A DNA stretch of 64,000 bases from Candidatus Uhrbacteria bacterium GW2011_GWE2_46_68 (lineage in GTDB: Bacteria > Patescibacteriota > Patescibacteriia > UBA9934 > GWF2-40-263): the NCBI GenBank assembly GCA_001002765.1, contig LCMS01000007.1, positions 8,170-72,169 of the forward strand. Reading direction: 5' to 3'. The notes below the pieces were generated by a model. It had not been told where the DNA came from, ran no database searches, and saw only the letters and a program-made list of their open reading frames with translations. Within the stretch, counting starts at the first letter, position 1; each line of letters begins with the position of its first letter. Made by a program: the position numbers and the translations under genes. This document shows positions 1,038 to 59,948 of the stretch, one piece after another.

Positions 1038-2432
1038 CTACTCGTTGGTATCGTCGGGCATCTCTGGCGGAGCCTCGCTGTCGGCGATCTGTTCGGCCGC
1101 AGGCACCTGGTCGGGTGTCTCATCGGGCCGTACCTCTTCCTCGGGAGGCTTGGCTTCCTCCTGCGGGGCATCGGGAGTCTTCTCGCACTTGGTCTTGAAA
1201 ATCCAGGCACGCAGGGCGCGGTGCCAGGGGTTTCGAGCATCGAAGACCACCTCACTACCGAAGATCAGGCTCATGCGAGCCGTCACGATCGGGGCGACCA
1301 GATCGCCCTCCTTGACCTGGCGGTACCAGTCCCGCCGCTCGCGTCCCTGGAGTGCTTCCGCCTGGGTGGGGAAGGCAACTCCGGTCCAGGAAATCGTGGG
1401 ATCCGTGATCCTGTCCCAGCGCAGCCGTACCTCCTCGAGGATCACAGGCTCGGCCTGACGAAGCAGGCTCACAGCCAACTGGTGGCACATGGGAACCGTG
1501 TCCGTCTGCACGGTCAATCCGGAGTCCAAAACGACCTTTTGGAGACGTTCATCACCAGGGTTGCCGATGATCCTCGCGATCATCTGACGCACGGTCCAAG
1601 GGGACTTGCTATAGGGATCAGGATCGATCTGTTCGATCGTCACACCCAGAAGGGCGAAGGGGTCGATGCCGGCCCGATCTTCCACATCCATGTTGATCTC
1701 GAAGCGATCGAGGTTCACATCCTTGGCCGCGCCAAGGACCGTGATATAGGCCCGTCCTTCCATGAACTTGTTGACTGCAAACGCGGTCTCGATCGGCTTG
1801 CCCTTTCCTGAAGTGGGCAAGTTGTCACTCATCTTATCGAGGAACAGCTGCATGCCCATGCACGATCCGATGAAATACCCGGCCTTCTGATCTTCCCCGT
1901 GGGTGGGGGTGAAGGCAAAGACGATCGAACCCATGGTCCGCAGGATATGCGGAATCTCGGGGATCATGGTCTGGCCCTCACGATCGAGGAGTCGATTCAA
2001 TTGATCGAGGAGATCAGGGTTGGCGTATCCGAAGGGGAGGAGCTTCCAGTACTGACCCTTGCGATCCCAGGGCGCCGGACGCATGAGAAGACCTGGCACA
2101 CCGCCTTGGGTCAAGGGATGACCCTTCTTGAACTCAACACCGAAAGGATTGAAGAGGCGTACGCGCACGACATGTGCGCGGCCATCTTCGACGATCCTGG
2201 CATTGGCCTGGAGGACGACATCATCGCCCACCTTGACCGGGGCGAAGTTCACGGCCACGGCCTGGTACTTGTTGGTGCCAGGCTGGCGCAAGGTGCGCTC
2301 CTTGACCTCTTGGGCTCCACCCTTGACGGTTTCACCCGCCAAGGTGAACAGGTCGAGGATGATGCGGGTCCAGGCAATCGGAAGAGAGTCGACCGCAAGC
2401 GCGGTCTTCGGGAGCTCATGGGTTGTGGTCAC
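1038..2432 (-). CDS. hypothetical protein, compositionally foreign (high GC), acidic Pro-rich C-terminal tail
   Basis: 464-aa ORF spanning the whole GC-rich block; GTG start at 2432 preceded by AGGAGG 5-6 nt upstream; balanced protein-like composition; no family recognised by eye. Confidence 0.6.
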   Translation of the reverse strand: MTTTHELPKTALAVDSLPIAWTRIILDLFTLAGETVKGGAQEVKERTLRQPGTNKYQAVAVNFAPVKVGDDVVLQANARIVEDGRAHVVRVRLFNPFGVEFKKGHPLTQGGVPGLLMRPAPWDRKGQYWKLLPFGYANPDLLDQLNRLLDREGQTMIPEIPHILRTMGSIVFAFTPTHGEDQKAGYFIGSCMGMQLFLDKMSDNLPTSGKGKPIETAFAVNKFMEGRAYITVLGAAKDVNLDRFEINMDVEDRAGIDPFALLGVTIEQIDPDPYSKSPWTVRQMIARIIGNPGDERLQKVVLDSGLTVQTDTVPMCHQLAVSLLRQAEPVILEEVRLRWDRITDPTISWTGVAFPTQAEALQGRERRDWYRQVKEGDLVAPIVTARMSLIFGSEVVFDARNPWHRALRAWIFKTKCEKTPDAPQEEAKPPEEEVRPDETPDQVPAAEQIADSEAPPEMPDDTNE

Positions 2433-2590: not shown

Positions 2591-3466
2591 ATGAAAGAAG
2601 CCATTGAAGCTCTTTTCACAGACAATGGGAAACCCACGCAAGCCCACGTGGATGCACTCAAGGGAGTGCGCTCACTTAATGATGTGAGCGCAGATGGAAT
2701 TGATCCCGATGCCATGGATCGCTTTTCTTATTTTCTCGACGCCCCTAAGGAAACGGCAGAAAGTCAGGCAGATGAAGATCGTCGCAGCCTTCTTCTTGCC
2801 CTTGCCAGCCATCTGGCTCCTACATCAAAAAACGAAAAACCTGATGAACCAAAAGAGCCGCGGCGTCCAATCGTACCTTCGAAACAAGAAAAAGAAGAAA
2901 AAAAGAAGGGAGTTCGAGACCCCAGAGAAAGTATACTTGGAGCATTTGATACAGTAGAAATCGAAGAACAAACAGGAGAGGATGAGGAGGAAGAAGTGGA
3001 AGAAGAGCGTCCGCAAAGAGGGAATCGTCGGGGACAACAAAACGGCGACCGTCCCAACGGACGCACACGAGATCAAGATGATCAGCAATATCGTCGTGAT
3101 CGTTGGCAACAAAGAAAGGATGAAAAAAAAGATCCTCAACCTCCACGGCCTGCTATTGTACAGGGAAGCCAAGATCATCTTCTCGCTCGTGTTCAAGCGG
3201 ATCCTCAATGGGTTGAGTTGCGGAATTACATTTTCGGAGAAATCTTGATTGTGCGAGGAAAAGATTCCACAAAGGTTGCCGGAGCCCTTTGGCAACTCTC
3301 TGAGCTTACTGATAGGTTGGTACATGGAGAAGTCATGGCAAGCCGATACACACACAATATGCGCGTTTTGGCCGGTGAAATGGTAACGAATCTTCACCTG
3401 CACAAAGATATCGAAAATCCCGCATGGTTTGAGAAACGCTACGGAGCGCTCCCCAAGAGTGTCTAA
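2591..3466 (+). CDS. hypothetical protein with central K/E/R/D/Q-rich low-complexity region
   Basis: ATG at 2591 with GGAGG 6 nt upstream (the longer ORF from 2567 lacks an RBS); ordered C-terminal ~130 aa. Confidence 0.55.
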   Translation: MKEAIEALFTDNGKPTQAHVDALKGVRSLNDVSADGIDPDAMDRFSYFLDAPKETAESQADEDRRSLLLALASHLAPTSKNEKPDEPKEPRRPIVPSKQEKEEKKKGVRDPRESILGAFDTVEIEEQTGEDEEEEVEEERPQRGNRRGQQNGDRPNGRTRDQDDQQYRRDRWQQRKDEKKDPQPPRPAIVQGSQDHLLARVQADPQWVELRNYIFGEILIVRGKDSTKVAGALWQLSELTDRLVHGEVMASRYTHNMRVLAGEMVTNLHLHKDIENPAWFEKRYGALPKSV

Positions 3467-3468
3467 GA

Positions 3469-3500
3469 CCGCCACGCCAGCGGTCTTTTACTTTTTTGAT
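3469..3500 (+). terminator. Rho-independent terminator
   Basis: aagaccgc-cacgcca-gcggtctt hairpin followed by TTACTTTTTTG immediately after the stop at 3466. Confidence 0.6.
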
Positions 3501-3564
3501 AAACAAAGGGGTCAGGTCTTTACCTTTTACCTTATCCAATATTTTGGCTTTAAACTTGCTTATT

Positions 3565-3584
3565 CCGCGCAGCTTGCTGCGCGG
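3565..3584. repeat. GC-rich palindromic hairpin CCGCGCAGC-TT-GCTGCGCGG (copy 1)
   Basis: Perfect palindrome inside the IR-bounded element; a second near-identical copy lies 240 bp downstream. Confidence 0.55.
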
Positions 3585-3804
3585 TTACCGCTTAAGTACG
3601 ATAGGAGGGTATGAGAGCGGTCAGAACAACAGAACACAATGTTTATCAAAGAACTTTGGGGCGGTGAACTCTGGACGGATGGTTTCTTTGTCTCCACGGT
3701 TGGTGAAGGAGGAAACCGAGACGTGATTCGGATATATGTTGAGAAACAAGGAAACAAATCAGATATCACCCAGCTTAAGCTTTTCAATTTTTAACCTCTG
3801 ATAC

Positions 3805-3824
3805 CGTGCAGCTTGCTGCGCGGA
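3805..3824. repeat. GC-rich palindromic hairpin CCGTGCAGC-TT-GCTGCGCGG (copy 2, stem extended by aacctc/gaggtt)
   Basis: Direct repeat of the 3565 hairpin with one substitution. Confidence 0.55.
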
Positions 3825-4037
3825 GGTTCATATAAAACTCATTATTTTTATTTATTGAATTAATAAGGTTTTTGAAACAAAGTTGATTATGCGTTGTTTT
3901 ACTCATCACCTGTGAAAAAGTTTGATCTCTTCGTATATAGTCTCAAAAAACAAGAAATATCCTCCGTTAACACAACAAAAGGGTAAAAGGTAAAGACCTG
4001 ACCCCCTTTGATATCCCCAGTTCACCCCTTTTCACCG

Positions 4038-4066
4038 TTGACCCAAGGAGGGAAAAAACCTATAAT
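4038..4066 (+). promoter_or_regulatory. sigma70-type promoter for the atp operon
   Basis: TTGACC (4038-4043), 17-nt spacer, TATAAT (4061-4066); ~22 nt upstream of the atpI-like start. Confidence 0.65.
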
Positions 4067-4088
4067 AACGGCGCCATTTGGCCTTTCT

Positions 4089-4370
4089 ATGTCTAATGAG
4101 GCTGTCTACTATCGTCTTGCTATGCGCATTTTTGCTGATTTTGGCATTACCATTGCCATTCCTTCGGTAGGTGCTGCTCTCCTTGGATCATGGCTTGATG
4201 ATCGGTATGAGACCGAGCCTCGATATCTCATCATCCTCCTGATTCTCGCTCTTGTTCTCACAGCCTTTTCCATTTATCGCAAAGCCACTTATTACGGACG
4301 CGTTTTCAATTCCTTATCAAATCCTTCGGACAAAACCTCTTCTTATGACGATCCCTCCAGCCGCCGCTGA
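4089..4370 (+). CDS. atpI: AtpI/AtpZ-like small membrane protein preceding atpB
   Basis: 93 aa from ATG 4089; two predicted TM helices; LLGSWLDDRYETEP motif resembles the AtpZ/AtpI family; first gene of the atp operon. The longer ORF from 4008 has no start support. Confidence 0.5.
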   Translation: MSNEAVYYRLAMRIFADFGITIAIPSVGAALLGSWLDDRYETEPRYLIILLILALVLTAFSIYRKATYYGRVFNSLSNPSDKTSSYDDPSSRR

Positions 4371-5204: not shown

Positions 5205-5423
5205 ATGGACGCAGAAACTATTGCGATCTTGATCAAAGGAGTGACCATCGCCTTTGGCGGTCTTGGACCGGCCATTGGTATCGGGATGATTGGAGCCAAA
5301 GCTATGGAAGGCATCGGCCGCAACCCCGAAGCTGCAGGTAAATTGTTCGTGCCTATGCTTTTGGGCATGGCCTTTGCTGAGGCTATTGCGATTTATTCCT
5401 TGGTCGTTTCTTTCACATTGTAA
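5205..5423 (+). CDS. atpE: F0F1 ATP synthase subunit c
   Basis: 72-aa two-helix proteolipid: GIGMIGAKAMEGIGRNPEA loop and ion-binding Glu in AFAEAIAIY; start at MDAETIA. Confidence 0.9.
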   Translation: MDAETIAILIKGVTIAFGGLGPAIGIGMIGAKAMEGIGRNPEAAGKLFVPMLLGMAFAEAIAIYSLVVSFTL

Positions 5424-5486
5424 TGTCAAACGACTCCAGGTTGCCTCAAAGGAGGCAGCCCTCGGCTGTTTGTTATTACATTTTCT

Positions 5487-6032
5487 ATGTCACAAGAAGT
5501 CGCTCTCATTCACGAAGCCGCGGAGGCTGTGGAAACCACCGGAGGTTTGGGAACCCTTGGAATCAATGTCAAAATTTTTCTGGCGCAACTCGTCAATTTT
5601 ACGATTGTGCTTTTGGTGCTTTGGCGTTGGGCTTATCGTCCCATTGTAAAACTTCTGGAAGATCGTCAGAAAAAGGTGGAAAAAAGCCTTCAAGATGCTG
5701 CAGACATTGAAAAACGCGTTGTGAGTTTAGAGGAGGAACGTAAAAGTATTTTGAGTCAGGCAAAACACGAAGCACATGTGGTTTTAGAAAAAGTGCAAAC
5801 TGATGCCGAGGTTCGTCGCGTTGAACTTCTTGCGAAGGCAAAAGAAGAAGTGTCTCAAGTGGTGCATCAGGGGAAAGTACAATTGCAAGCAGAAAAAGAA
5901 GCCATGTTGCGCGAGACGCGTCAAGAAATTGTAAATCTTGCCATTGAATCTGCACGTAAAATATTGGAAGAATCCATTTCCGAGAAAAAATCTCAAGCTC
6001 TCGCGGAAGAGGTGATAGAAAAAATGTCTTGA
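5487..6032 (+). CDS. atpF: F0F1 ATP synthase subunit b
   Basis: N-terminal TM helix then long charged coiled-coil; position between atpE and atpH. Confidence 0.85.
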   Translation: MSQEVALIHEAAEAVETTGGLGTLGINVKIFLAQLVNFTIVLLVLWRWAYRPIVKLLEDRQKKVEKSLQDAADIEKRVVSLEEERKSILSQAKHEAHVVLEKVQTDAEVRRVELLAKAKEEVSQVVHQGKVQLQAEKEAMLRETRQEIVNLAIESARKILEESISEKKSQALAEEVIEKMS

Positions 6033-6033
6033 T

Positions 6034-6420
6034 ATGGCCGCCACTCCAAAACAACTTGCAACCGTTTATCTTAAAGCCACGGAATCCTGCGAAGAAAAAG
6101 AACTGGAAGAAATCTCAAAACAGTTCGTGGTTTACCTGAAAGAGCATTATCTTCTTCCAAAAACACATGCCATTCTCGCGGCCATCGATCAAGCGTGGAA
6201 AGAGCAATACGGCGTCTCCCAAGTAAAAATAACGACCGCTTATCCGCTCACAAAAAAAGCTCTGCAAACTTTGGAAAAATATGCTCATGGCGCCAGTGTG
6301 GAAACGTGTGTGGATCCCGCTTTGATCGGAGGCGCGCGCTTGCAAATAGATGACCGCATTTTAGACGGATCCGTTCAAGGGCAATTATCTTCTCTCAAAC
6401 AAATTCTTTTGGAAATATAA
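6034..6420 (+). CDS. atpH: F0F1 ATP synthase subunit delta (short, 128 aa)
   Basis: Operon position between b and alpha; C-terminal [18 protein letters not shown] matches the OSCP/delta C-terminus; about 50 aa shorter than typical. Confidence 0.75.
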
Positions 6421-6424
6421 ATGT

Positions 6425-7939
6425 ATGGCAAAGAAAACTGAAATCATTGATGCGCTTAAAACGCAACTCGCACGCTTTTCAGCCGAAGCGAAAGAAGAAC
6501 AAATCGGCACAGTACTAAGTGTTGGAGACGGTATTGCACGCATGTCCGGGCTCTCTCAAGTACAATCCATGGAAATGTTGGAGTTTCCCGGTCAGGTCTA
6601 TGGTGTGGCATTCAATTTGGAAGAAGATAGCGTAGGAGCCATCTTGTTTGGAGATACCAAGGAGATCAAAGAAGGCGACACCGTAAAATCCACAGGACGT
6701 ATTTTATCCATTCCCGTATGCAATGGTGTTCTTGGTCGTGTGGTAGATCCACTGGGGCATCCGCTTGATGGAAAAGGGAAAATTCAGGCAAAGGAATACC
6801 AGCCGATTGAAAAAATCGCTCCTGGCGTCATGACACGCAAGTCTGTGCATGTGCCACTTCAAACGGGCATTAAGGCGATCGATTCCATGATTCCTATCGG
6901 TCGTGGGCAACGCGAACTTATTATTGGCGATCGTCAAACAGGAAAAACCGCCATTGCCATTGATACGATCGTTAATCAAAAAGGACAAAACGTAAAATGT
7001 ATTTACGTGGCAATCGGGCAAAAAGAATCCAAAATCGCCAAAATGGTGGCGCGACTTGAAGCAGCCGGCGCAATGGAATACACCACAGTCGTCGTCGCAG
7101 GGGCGTCTGATCCTGCCTCTATGTCTTACATTGCTCCTTACGCCGGTTGTACGATTGGAGAATTTTTTCGCGACAAAGGTGAGGATGCTTTGGTCATCTA
7201 CGATGACCTTTCCAAACATGCTTGGGCGTATCGCGAAATTTCCCTTTTATTGCGCCGTCCACCCGGTCGCGAGGCTTATCCGGGAGATGTATTTTATCTC
7301 CATTCCCGTTTGCTTGAACGGGCGACCTGCATGAATGAAGAAAATGGAGGGGGAACATTAACCGCACTTCCCATTATCGAAACCCAATCGGGCGATGTAT
7401 CCGCGTACATTCCCACAAACGTCATCTCCATTACAGACGGACAAATTTATTTGGAAAGCGATTTGTTTTATCGCGGGATCCGTCCTGCCTTAAACGTGGG
7501 TCTTTCGGTTTCGCGCGTGGGTTCTTCAGCGCAAACCAAGGCCATGAAAAAAGTGGCGGGAAAGCTGCGTCTCGATTTGGCACAATTCCGTGAGCTCGAA
7601 GCGTTTGCCCAGTTTGCAACCGATCTTGATGAAAATACTCGCAAACAAATCGAACGAGGACGACTCACTACCGAACTTCTCAAACAACCTCAATATCAAA
7701 CTTTACCGTTTGAGGAACAGGTGGCCACCATCTACGCCGTCATCAACGGTTTGCTTGATACGTTCAAGCCGGAACAAATGCATGCGTGGGAAAAAGGACT
7801 CTATGTATTTTTGCGATCAAGCAGCACCAATGTCCTTGGTATGATTCGTGAAAAAAAACAACTGGATGAGGAGGTGGAAAAAACACTCAAGCAAGCAATC
7901 AACGACTATAACGAAGAATTTATCCGATCACAGTCATAA
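6425..7939 (+). CDS. atpA: F0F1 ATP synthase subunit alpha
   Basis: 504 aa; Walker A GDRQTGKT; alpha-subunit signature throughout. Confidence 0.97.
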
Positions 7940-59738: not shown

Positions 59739-59948
59739 GGGGTCAGGTCGTGAATCGTAGCGTCTTTAATAAAGCTTAATATTGTCAAAGCACTGTTTCT
59801 TAAATAAATACATTGTACAAATGAAAGAATCTAAAAAATCTCAACAAAATTTTATTATTTGAACAAAGACATTAAGATAAAATTTCAACGTTTTATAGCC
59901 CTAAAGCTAATAAAGTTAACTTAACGCTACGATTCACGACCTGACCCC
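59739..59948. repeat. noncoding element bounded by perfect 25-bp inverted repeats, sharing its outer 11 bp with the 3504-4010 element
   Basis: ggggtcaggtcgtgaatcgtagcgt (59739-59763) is the exact reverse complement of acgctacgattcacgacctgacccc (59924-59948). Interior 160 bp is very AT-rich. Outer termini GGGGTCAGGTC...GACCTGACCCC are identical to those of the first element. Confidence 0.6.

Follow-up and report, generated by a model that had tools for sequence, protein, structure and literature searches.

A broken IS200/IS605-family insertion sequence inside a pair of TIRYT-type inverted repeats upstream of the atp operon of a Candidatus Uhrbacteria bacterium

The 64,000-nt stretch of Candidatus Uhrbacteria bacterium GW2011_GWE2_46_68 that was analysed here (the window; contig LCMS01000007.1, positions 8,170 to 72,169) carries, directly upstream of its atp operon, a 500-bp "element" that is composed of two nested mobile-element pieces, a broken copy of an IS200/IS605-family insertion sequence (IS) lying within a pair of inverted repeats. 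With a probability that we put at roughly 0.85, it is a nest of two elements related to Y1 (HUH tyrosine) transposases that came to be placed between the upstream terminator and the atp promoter and that is now decaying. The unit is ordinary mobile-element debris and not a regulator of the ATP synthase operon. Genes that resemble those of REP-associated tyrosine transposases (RAYTs), but that have long terminal inverted repeats (TIRs) instead of repetitive extragenic palindromes (REPs), have been named TIRtrons and their enzymes TIRYTs (Di Nocera, De Gregorio & Rocco 2013, PMC3733652), and it is to this type that the outer repeats belong. Both element types are already known; the second, the TIRYT-type system, is found here in a phylum that is unmentioned in PMC3733652 and PMC6006769, neither of which mentions Patescibacteria, Parcubacteria or candidate phyla, the examples there being drawn from cultivated phyla.

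Results

Layout of the nested unit

The groundwater Candidatus Uhrbacteria population from which the window derives is found in several public assemblies, and its loci are referred to below, like all other comparison loci, by L-numbers (L002, L049 and so on). The perfect 24-bp inverted repeats described in the original prediction are real, with GGGGTCAGGTCTTTACCTTTTACC at 3508-3531 and its exact reverse complement at 3982-4005, and this 24-mer has two matches in the 64 kb compared with none in 100 shuffles. The inverted repeat is in fact longer than 24 bp and extends over 34 nt at 88% complementarity (3498-3531 and 3982-4015). The left terminal repeat (3498-3531, plus strand) thus comprises the perfect 24-mer, which begins with the core GGGGTCAGGTC at 3508-3518, and an imperfect extension at 3498-3507, and the right terminal repeat (3982-4015, minus strand) comprises the perfect 24-mer and an extension that runs to 4015.

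Between the two repeats lie a short AT-rich spacer (3532-3551), which is partly lost through a 33-nt deletion in GCA_001002565.1, the internally deleted IS (~3552-3831, plus strand) and the AT-rich filler of the repeat dimer (3832-3981, 27% GC), for which blastn against all comparison loci returned no relative. The interior had been described as AT-rich, and this is correct for the filler but not for the IS part, which has about the composition of the genome. On its left side the unit follows the intrinsic terminator of the upstream 291-aa gene (3465-3497, plus strand; GACCGCC...GGCGGTC-TTTT), which is also found in L029 and L030, two loci that have no element, and a terminator scan recovered the terminator-like hairpin at 3465-3487, in line with the terminator reported earlier at this place. 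On its right side, the atp operon promoter (TTGACC-17-TATAAT, 4038-4066, plus strand) is outside the element and is kept in relatives; as had been proposed, the unit ends just before the -35 box (TTGACC at 4038), which begins 32 nt past the right repeat.

A broken IS200/IS605-family insertion sequence as the inner element

Members of the IS200/IS605 family transpose through single-stranded DNA (ssDNA) intermediates, their Y1 transposase recognising hairpins at the left and right ends (LE and RE) of the element, and they insert 3' of a short tetra- or pentanucleotide target without terminal inverted repeats or target duplication; IS200 itself is ~700 bp in size. The two GC palindromes that had been noted within the element, at 3565 and 3805, are the LE and RE hairpins of one such IS. 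The first is a perfect palindrome, as stated (CCGCGCAGC-TT-GCTGCGCGG, 3565-3584, plus strand; -10.9 kcal/mol as ssDNA), but the second lies at 3804-3823 and has one mismatch (CCGTGCAGC-TT-GCTGCGCGG), a C>T change that produces a G·T pair in the stem, and it is followed by an 8-nt tail, AGGTTCAT, with which the IS ends (RE hairpin and tail together 3804-3831, plus strand). The palindromes are direct repeats across 26 nt with their 5' flank included, and with its hairpins in direct orientation the IS has no terminal inverted repeats of its own.

The earlier statement that the segment contains no credible open reading frame (ORF) does not hold. A 51-aa ORF at 3639-3794 (plus strand) passes the Pfam Y1_Tnp model (PF01797, IS200-like) with 29.1 bits against a gathering threshold of 23, aligning with profile positions 89-121 of 121, and represents a C-terminal remnant of tnpA in which the helix with the catalytic Tyr is present and the HUH motif is absent. 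Upstream of it, an ATG at 3611 that is preceded by the ribosome-binding site AGGAGG opens an N-terminal stub of tnpA comprising the first ~13 codons (MRAVRTTEHNVYQ, 3611-3649, plus strand), which runs into a deletion junction at ~3647-3650. In a six-frame translation the stub encodes MRAVRTTEHNVY, in a frame other than that of the C-terminal ORF, and MRAVRTTEHNVY matches the N-termini of the intact TnpA proteins in L007 and L049. As read from the sequence, the tnpA of the window is truncated and non-functional.

What was lost can be read from L049, a metagenome contig that carries an intact copy of the IS in another gene context, 98.5% identical (322/327 nt) to the window-type remnant and encoding a TnpA of 146 aa that scores 122.5 bits on the NCBIfam IS200/IS605 model (NF033573, cut-off 55). 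In the alignment with L049, the window-type IS lacks 209 nt between 11-nt direct repeats ATCAAATCCAT, an out-of-frame loss, and it is because of this deletion that the HUH motif of tnpA is gone. The window copy is 279 bp long, in comparison with 536-539 bp for full-length copies.

When the 67-aa form of the remnant was used as a protein query, 93 Y1_Tnp proteins were returned. The IS loci L007, L008 and L009 lie in unrelated gene neighbourhoods and have a common architecture, in which ~11 nt (ACTTGCTTATT) are followed by a hairpin with a 9-bp stem and a TT loop, TTACC, ~25 nt, tnpA (MRAV.T.EHN.YQIHYHF...KLFDF*), GATACC, a second hairpin and the tail AG..TCAT. Similarity between the IS copies (L007, L008, L009 and L049, four unrelated gene contexts) is bounded exactly by TAAACTTGC... 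and ...AGGTTCAT, its limits being 11-13 nt upstream of the LE hairpin and 8 nt downstream of the RE hairpin. Because this similarity stops at the IS ends, the outer 24-mers stand apart from the IS, and no copy of the 24-mer was found within 5 mismatches in the IS loci L007-L009. The ends themselves are fixed by the junction of RE and LE in L008, where two tandem IS copies (5239-6305), the first of them partly degraded, are arranged so that the RE tail ...GTCAT is directly joined to the next LE. The hairpin stem occurs in four versions, CCGCGCAGC/GCTGCGCGG, CCGCCCAGC/GCTGGGCGG, CCTCGCGGC/GCCGCGAGG and CCCCGGGGC/GCCCCGGGG, all of which keep 9 Watson-Crick pairs and so amount to compensatory change. 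The 5' flanks of LE are TTTAA, CCTAA, CATTA, TATTA and TTAAA, as would be expected for a target resembling ...TAA or TTAA, and no target duplication was seen in the LE and RE flanks compared.

The closest comparator is therefore the IS200 group of the family (for example IS200 and tnpA-only derivatives of IS608), with which the intact relative shares a ~146-aa Y1 HUH transposase, covarying GC-rich subterminal hairpins in direct orientation at both ends, and copies in unrelated contexts. It differs from these in being very small (536-539 bp rather than ~700 bp), and the window copy differs further in being dead, with its HUH motif deleted and its RE stem weakened, and in residing inside the dimer of another Y1 system. 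In being internally deleted with both ends kept, the window copy is similar to the PATE-like deletion derivatives of IS200/IS605.

Decay among assemblies of one population

Six assemblies of one population were compared over the intergenic region and are identical apart from two deletions. One of these, of 48 nt (16 codons) in the tnpA remnant, affects only the assembly of the window, at 3647-3650; in the other assemblies the remnant ORF is 67 aa long, and it is annotated as a Y1_Tnp gene in L002 and L003. The other deletion, of 33 nt (window 3523-3555), is confined to GCA_001002565.1 (L005) and covers the spacer together with the innermost 9 nt of the left 24-mer on one side and the tip of LE on the other. 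Decay of the locus is ongoing, with the 48- and 33-nt deletions polymorphic between assemblies. The element has one orientation throughout the six, which speaks against its reading as an inversion switch.

The outer repeats belong to a TIRYT-type family of Uhrbacteria

The 24-mer is not specific to this locus, and genome and metagenome scans recovered GGGGTCAGGTCTTTACCTTTTACC-type repeats at other loci. A scan of one genome per species found the 20-mer GGGTCAGGTCTTTACCTTTT in 18 stretches, and a scan of JGI metagenomes found it in 20, nearly all taxonomically labelled carriers being metagenome-assembled genomes (MAGs) of Uhrbacteria/Patescibacteria, and two MAGs have 9 exact sites each. From 57 unique instances a conserved unit of ~27 nt emerges, GGGGTCAGGTCTTTACCTTTTAC(T/C)TTT, which is found as solo copies, tandem pairs, inverted pairs and one in-frame intragenic copy. 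The solo copies occupy short intergenic gaps, often 0-18 nt ahead of a start codon, and the inverted pairs in L016, L020, L037 and L014 enclose only ~90-170 nt of AT-rich DNA; the units of L016 and L020, which come from one MAG, are 73% identical across 268 nt. The 11-nt core GGGGTCAGGTC is followed by lineage-variable tails (TTTACCTTTTAC, TTTACCCTTTACC, TTTATATTTTAT or GTGAATTGTAGCG). A full-text literature search with the repeat sequence gave no match.

The connection of this repeat to transposases comes from loci in which inverted copies flank a gene. In L024/L054, L041 and L050 the enclosed genes encode 281-289 aa and are mutually only ~50% identical, the proteins match Pfam Y1_Tnp, and that of L041 reaches 94.7 bits on the NCBIfam model NF047646, "REP-associated tyrosine transposase" (REP_Tyr_transpos, cut-off 80). 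L055 holds a further copy of the L050 unit, internally deleted and at a different site, with arms that are 91-93% identical. Because these first gene-bracketing cases had been found through the repeat, a reverse test was run on three homologues picked by protein similarity alone (83%, 57% and 51% identity). All three have GGGGTCAGGTC ~28 nt upstream of the ATG, and an inverted copy is located at or over the stop codon in both of the homologues with downstream sequence (L056/57 and L058/59); L060 has the upstream copy only, its contig ending before the 3' side. The TIRYT-type proteins are 281-297 aa in length, compared with ~146 aa for the Y1 core, and may add a C-terminal helix-turn-helix (HTH) domain, for which there is a weak match to HTH_38 (E 0.007) and, in several homologues, a precomputed assignment to PF13384 HTH_23.

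The motif GGGGWSAS is common to many TIRYT repeats, and some of these repeats make up families of moderate abundance, with copies that are single, dimeric or grouped (PMC3733652); most TIRYTs fall into subclass 2.1 of TnpA_REP and have C-terminal HTH domains (Quentin et al. 2018, PMC6006769). The motif fits the repeats of the window, in which GGGGTCAG is found at 3508-3515 and, as the complement, at 3998-4005, as well as at 59739 and 59948. The outer 24-mers are members of an Uhrbacteria TIRYT-type terminal repeat family with the core GGGGTCAGGTC.

The system is similar to the described TIRtrons in that RAYT-like Y1 proteins with a putative C-terminal HTH are encoded between long inverted repeats that start with GGGGWSAS (here GGGGTCAG), in that, in the related genomes, one repeat precedes the gene by a fixed short interval and the other overlaps its stop codon or adjoins it, and in that the repeats form genomic families of solo, dimeric and clustered copies, intragenic ones included. 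It is unlike them in that the window holds gene-less dimers only, with ~150-170 nt of AT-rich filler, and in that many solo copies are directly 5' of start codons at species-conserved positions. There is also a similarity to the REP/REPIN-RAYT systems (Nunvar 2010; Bertels & Rainey 2011, PMC3116915; Ton-Hoang 2012), which likewise have a Y1 gene between inverted copies of a dispersed intergenic repeat; in both, inverted doublets appear to be the mobile form, and the NCBIfam REP_Tyr_transpos model is passed here as well. Unlike REPs and REPINs, however, the repeat is non-palindromic and has no GTAG/CGTC tag, its doublets have much longer spacers, and its copy number per genome appears to be in the tens rather than in the hundreds. 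A classical REP/REPIN identity was rejected on the first two of these grounds, the 32-nt repeat unit folding into a 4-bp stem only (-1.9 kcal/mol, z -1.6) and containing neither GTAG nor CGTC. A promoter reading of the repeat, with TACTTT as a -10-like box, was also rejected, the distance to the ATG varying between 0 and 18 nt and no -35 fitting, and an uptake signal of the DUS/USS type (DNA uptake sequence/uptake signal sequence), a CRISPR-like mini-array and a dif/Xer site were dropped after RAYT-like genes had been found between the repeats.

Several individual copies merit separate mention. The 158-kb contig Ga0209417_1000207 carries both an intact TIRtron (L041, 397-1323) and an intact IS200-type IS in a repeat dimer (L049, 5973-6680), and the two units share the CTTTTACC tail variant, which is also present in the window, so that this contig may represent the best available model genome. 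In L026 a full repeat copy (6869-6895) is situated in frame inside mnmA, where it encodes ...KVKGKDLTP... and fills a variable loop; the L021 orthologue has a loop of equal length, which suggests a replacement with no net insertion. A match in Marivivens (L012, also L047) spans 20-22 nt only and may be due to chance. Two contigs of an "uncultured Gammaproteobacteria" MAG, L058 (CAYZPO010000004.1) and L025 (CAYZPO010000014.1), hold an Uhrbacteria-type TIRtron and repeat, and this MAG has probably been mis-classified or is a chimera.

A second dimer in the window

A search with the 11-nt core located a second gene-less repeat dimer at 59739-59948 (cores at 59739 and 59938), with perfect 24-nt arms GGGGTCAGGTCGTGAATCGTAGCG at 59739-59762 and 59925-59948 and a 162-nt filler at 22% GC. 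It lies directly downstream of a terminator, with a partial extra core (GGGGTCAGAAC) just 5', and its repeat tail matches the one found ahead of the RAYT-like gene of L060, a locus from the same groundwater sample as L004. The two dimers share their design with each other and with dimers of other Uhrbacteria and are of similar size, 221 bp for the first without its IS and 210 bp for the second, and the similarity between their fillers is not significant (11.5 compared with 8.0±4.2 for shuffles).

The orthologous junction in relatives

The original prediction had suggested a comparison of the tatD-atp junction in related genomes. The AtpB identity of the relatives is 93% for L029-L031, 92% for L032 and L033, and 75% for L034 and L035, and in these the gene order is kept: tatD, a gene of ~460 aa (minus strand), a gene of 311-485 aa with unknown function, and atpI. 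The gap ahead of atpI measures 146-184 nt in the relatives versus 623 nt in the window, and the close relatives (AtpB 92-93%) are without the whole repeat-bounded unit. To the left, L029 and L030 share the terminator with the window, and to the right they share ATCCCCAGTTCACC...TTGACC...TATAAT; between these they have 38 unrelated nt in place of window ~3499-4013, so that the limits of the variable segment match the outer ends of the extended inverted repeat. The repeat core was found nowhere in the loci of the junction relatives. The simplest reading of these alignments is that the whole repeat-bounded unit was inserted in the lineage of the window.

At the same junction, L032 (4540-4700; 92% AtpB) has another repeat, GC-rich and palindromic, in three copies (GTACGGGCGGGGTAACCCCGCCCGTAC). 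The interval between the terminator and the atp promoter seems to be a hot spot for the insertion of repeats.

Discussion

A proposed history of the nest

The arrangement of the unit suggests the following sequence of events. The outer element (~3498-4015) is a non-autonomous "TIR dimer", two inverted GGGGTCAGGTC-core repeats around ~170 nt of AT-rich filler, which a TIRYT encoded elsewhere in the genome may have moved in trans. The dimer was probably there first, and the IS would then have landed in its AT-rich filler; this inner IS (~3552-3831) would have transposed as ssDNA and inserted 3' of a short target, here ...TAA. The 209-nt out-of-frame deletion between the ATCAAATCCAT repeats then inactivated the IS, the C>T change weakened the RE stem, and the strain of the window lost a further 48 nt while another strain lost 33 nt, consisting of the inner left repeat and the LE tip. 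The unit probably serves no host function, and both the upstream terminator and the atp promoter are intact and of the same design as in the element-less relatives.

Several considerations weigh against this history. A tblastn search with a TIRYT protein found no gene for such an enzyme in the 64 kb of the window or at other loci of this organism, so that mobilisation in trans is a supposition. The repeat is nearly without self-structure (-1.9 kcal/mol), whereas characterised Y1 enzymes recognise hairpins, and the TIRYT literature examined contained no TIRYT biochemistry, binding and cleavage assays on TIRYTs having been put forward as future work in PMC3733652. The "empty" site of L029 consists of 38 unrelated nt, with no clean junction, and no target-site signature can be defined from it. 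Many solo repeats stand at conserved positions 5' of housekeeping genes, which hints at a host function. Finally, the window and L049 agree in having the IS enclosed by inverted repeat copies, with the same orientation in each and with LE 10-22 nt from one of the copies, an agreement that independent random insertion does not explain. The recurrence of an IS in a dimer could reflect a target preference, recombination or, with n=2, chance. It is similar to what is found for ISs that target REPs (Tobes & Pareja 2006, as cited in PMC5581495; ISPpu9, PMC8450116), where an IS recurrently sits inside the repeat of another system, but those are DDE or DEDD elements in palindromic REPs, unlike the Y1 IS that lies here in TIR-dimer filler, and two cases (n=2) are too few to establish specificity.

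Alternative explanations

One alternative is that the whole unit is a single element, an IS200-like IS which, having gained 24-bp terminal inverted repeats, moves together with them from one repeat to another. The window and L049 do have the same succession of repeat, spacer, LE, tnpA, RE, AT-rich filler and repeat, in the same relative orientation, and the limits of the indel relative to L029 coincide with the outer repeat ends. Yet between the window and L049 the IS is 98.5% identical while the filler from RE to the repeat is unalignable and the left spacers differ by a 12-nt indel, and we consider this explanation improbable. No such repeat is near the related IS copies of L007, L008 and L009, RE is joined straight to LE in the tandem copies of L008, and the same repeats elsewhere enclose genes of a different class (RAYT-like) or no gene at all.

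The repeats could instead be the remains of a resident TIRYT cassette in which the gene was deleted or replaced, so that nothing would have arrived as a small dimer. L055 is a precedent, being a gene-bearing unit that decayed by internal deletion to a repeat-bounded remnant of ~340 bp, and the window locus is likewise prone to deletion. A relic TIRtron of this kind is nonetheless very improbable, given that tblastn with a TIRYT protein yields nothing in the window, that the filler has 27% GC compared with 40-55% for TIRYT units, that AT-rich dimers of the same size exist elsewhere, and that the relatives have no TIRtron at the junction.

Among the three candidates of the original prediction, a miniature inverted-repeat transposable element (MITE)-like non-autonomous transposon came nearest, in that the unit is absent from the junction of relatives and its termini are multi-copy, but the family is of the Y1 tyrosine transposase type (TIRYT/RAYT-like) rather than a DDE-type MITE with duplications, and the central ~280 bp had been missed as a separate nested IS200/IS605 remnant. 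A classical MITE in the strict sense, that is, a deletion derivative of an IS with a DDE transposase that has TIRs and a target-site duplication, would account for a unit of ~220 bp without the IS, with perfect TIRs and an AT-rich interior in an intergenic position, as well as for the L016 and L020 units, paralogues of 73% identity from one MAG, and a possible 6-nt direct repeat, TTTGAT, at 3495-3500 and 4007-4012. This is highly unlikely indeed, as Y1 transposases are the only genes found between these repeats, with no DDE transposase seen, and TTTGAT overlaps the extension of the inverted repeat and is unsupported by an empty site. The check for target-site duplications that had been suggested at the outset gave no consistent flanking duplication across 20+ units.

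That the unit is a functional atp cis-element or a structured noncoding RNA (an invertible switch, a leader or a small RNA gene) is scarcely credible, although it lies directly upstream of the atp promoter, its long inverted repeat could form a 24-34-bp stem or act as inversion sites, and there is a weak promoter-like match at 3912-3941, since it is absent from relatives with an identical promoter and leader, has one orientation in six assemblies, is decaying through deletions, and has an interior made of recognisable mobile-element parts, namely a broken transposase gene and non-conserved filler, and since an Rfam scan of 3300-4300 at E<=5 returned only a chance snoRNA match (24.6 bits, gathering threshold 51); the long structured RNA that had been offered as a candidate finds no support either.

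The reading as a decaying nest of two Y1-type elements removes a false lead, in that the locus is no atp regulator, RNA gene or genomic island edge and should be annotated as a mobile-element remnant. It also indicates that the ultra-small genomes of the candidate phyla radiation (CPR)/Patescibacteria host an active-looking Y1-transposase ecosystem, in which tiny IS200-type ISs occur alongside TIRtron/TIRYT systems with dispersed repeats. In the full-text literature searched, no more than three papers use the term TIRYT.

Possible domestication of the repeat

Some of the solo copies are more uniform than their surroundings. Next to an hpf-like gene in four MAGs (L013 5517, L015 7743, L027 3899 and L043 113), the 27-nt repeat is identical at 24-27 of 27 positions, with third codon positions of the adjacent coding sequence 34-52% identical, and GGTATAACTAA, just upstream of these copies, is also conserved. 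For an mnmA-like gene (L021 3305 and L026 7916), the repeat is identical at 27/27 positions versus 28/50 third positions. The copies at both genes are 0-6 nt ahead of the start codon, at orthologous positions in different MAGs, and are 89-100% identical, in contrast to the synonymous sites next to them, which are saturated. This pattern suggests that selection or concerted evolution keeps the hpf and mnmA copies uniform, and it is compatible with a domesticated role.

It is conceivable, though in our view doubtful, that the Uhrbacteria TIRYT repeat has been recruited as a cis-acting expression signal and is thus more than selfish debris. If this were so, the repeat might serve as a 5'-leader or as an operator for the HTH domain of the TIRYT, or it might be kept uniform by TIRYT-driven concerted evolution, and the gene-less AT-rich dimers would then represent its mobile or "spare" form, in which IS200-type elements would preferentially land. 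The placement of the repeat ahead of housekeeping start codons provides a testable hint at the domestication of such repeats.

Neighbouring genes

The 464-aa gene at 1038-2432 (minus strand) has 60% GC in a genome of 45% GC and no Pfam or NCBIfam match, and it had been taken as part of an accessory patch whose import might have left the element as a scar or border. The gene is instead vertically inherited and unconnected with the element: its counterparts are syntenic, 90% (L029) and 74% (L032) identical, and equally GC-rich (0.60-0.63 throughout) in relatives that have no element, which refutes the idea of a scar. In L002 and L003 the gene is annotated as two split ORFs, which may represent a frameshift or an assembly difference. 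The gene that follows, at 2591-3466 (plus strand), encodes a highly charged protein of 291 aa with a K/E/D/R-rich centre that matches no family. The identity to its syntenic counterparts is only 48-49%, in comparison with the 90% of its neighbour, and the gene is fast-evolving and lineage-specific.

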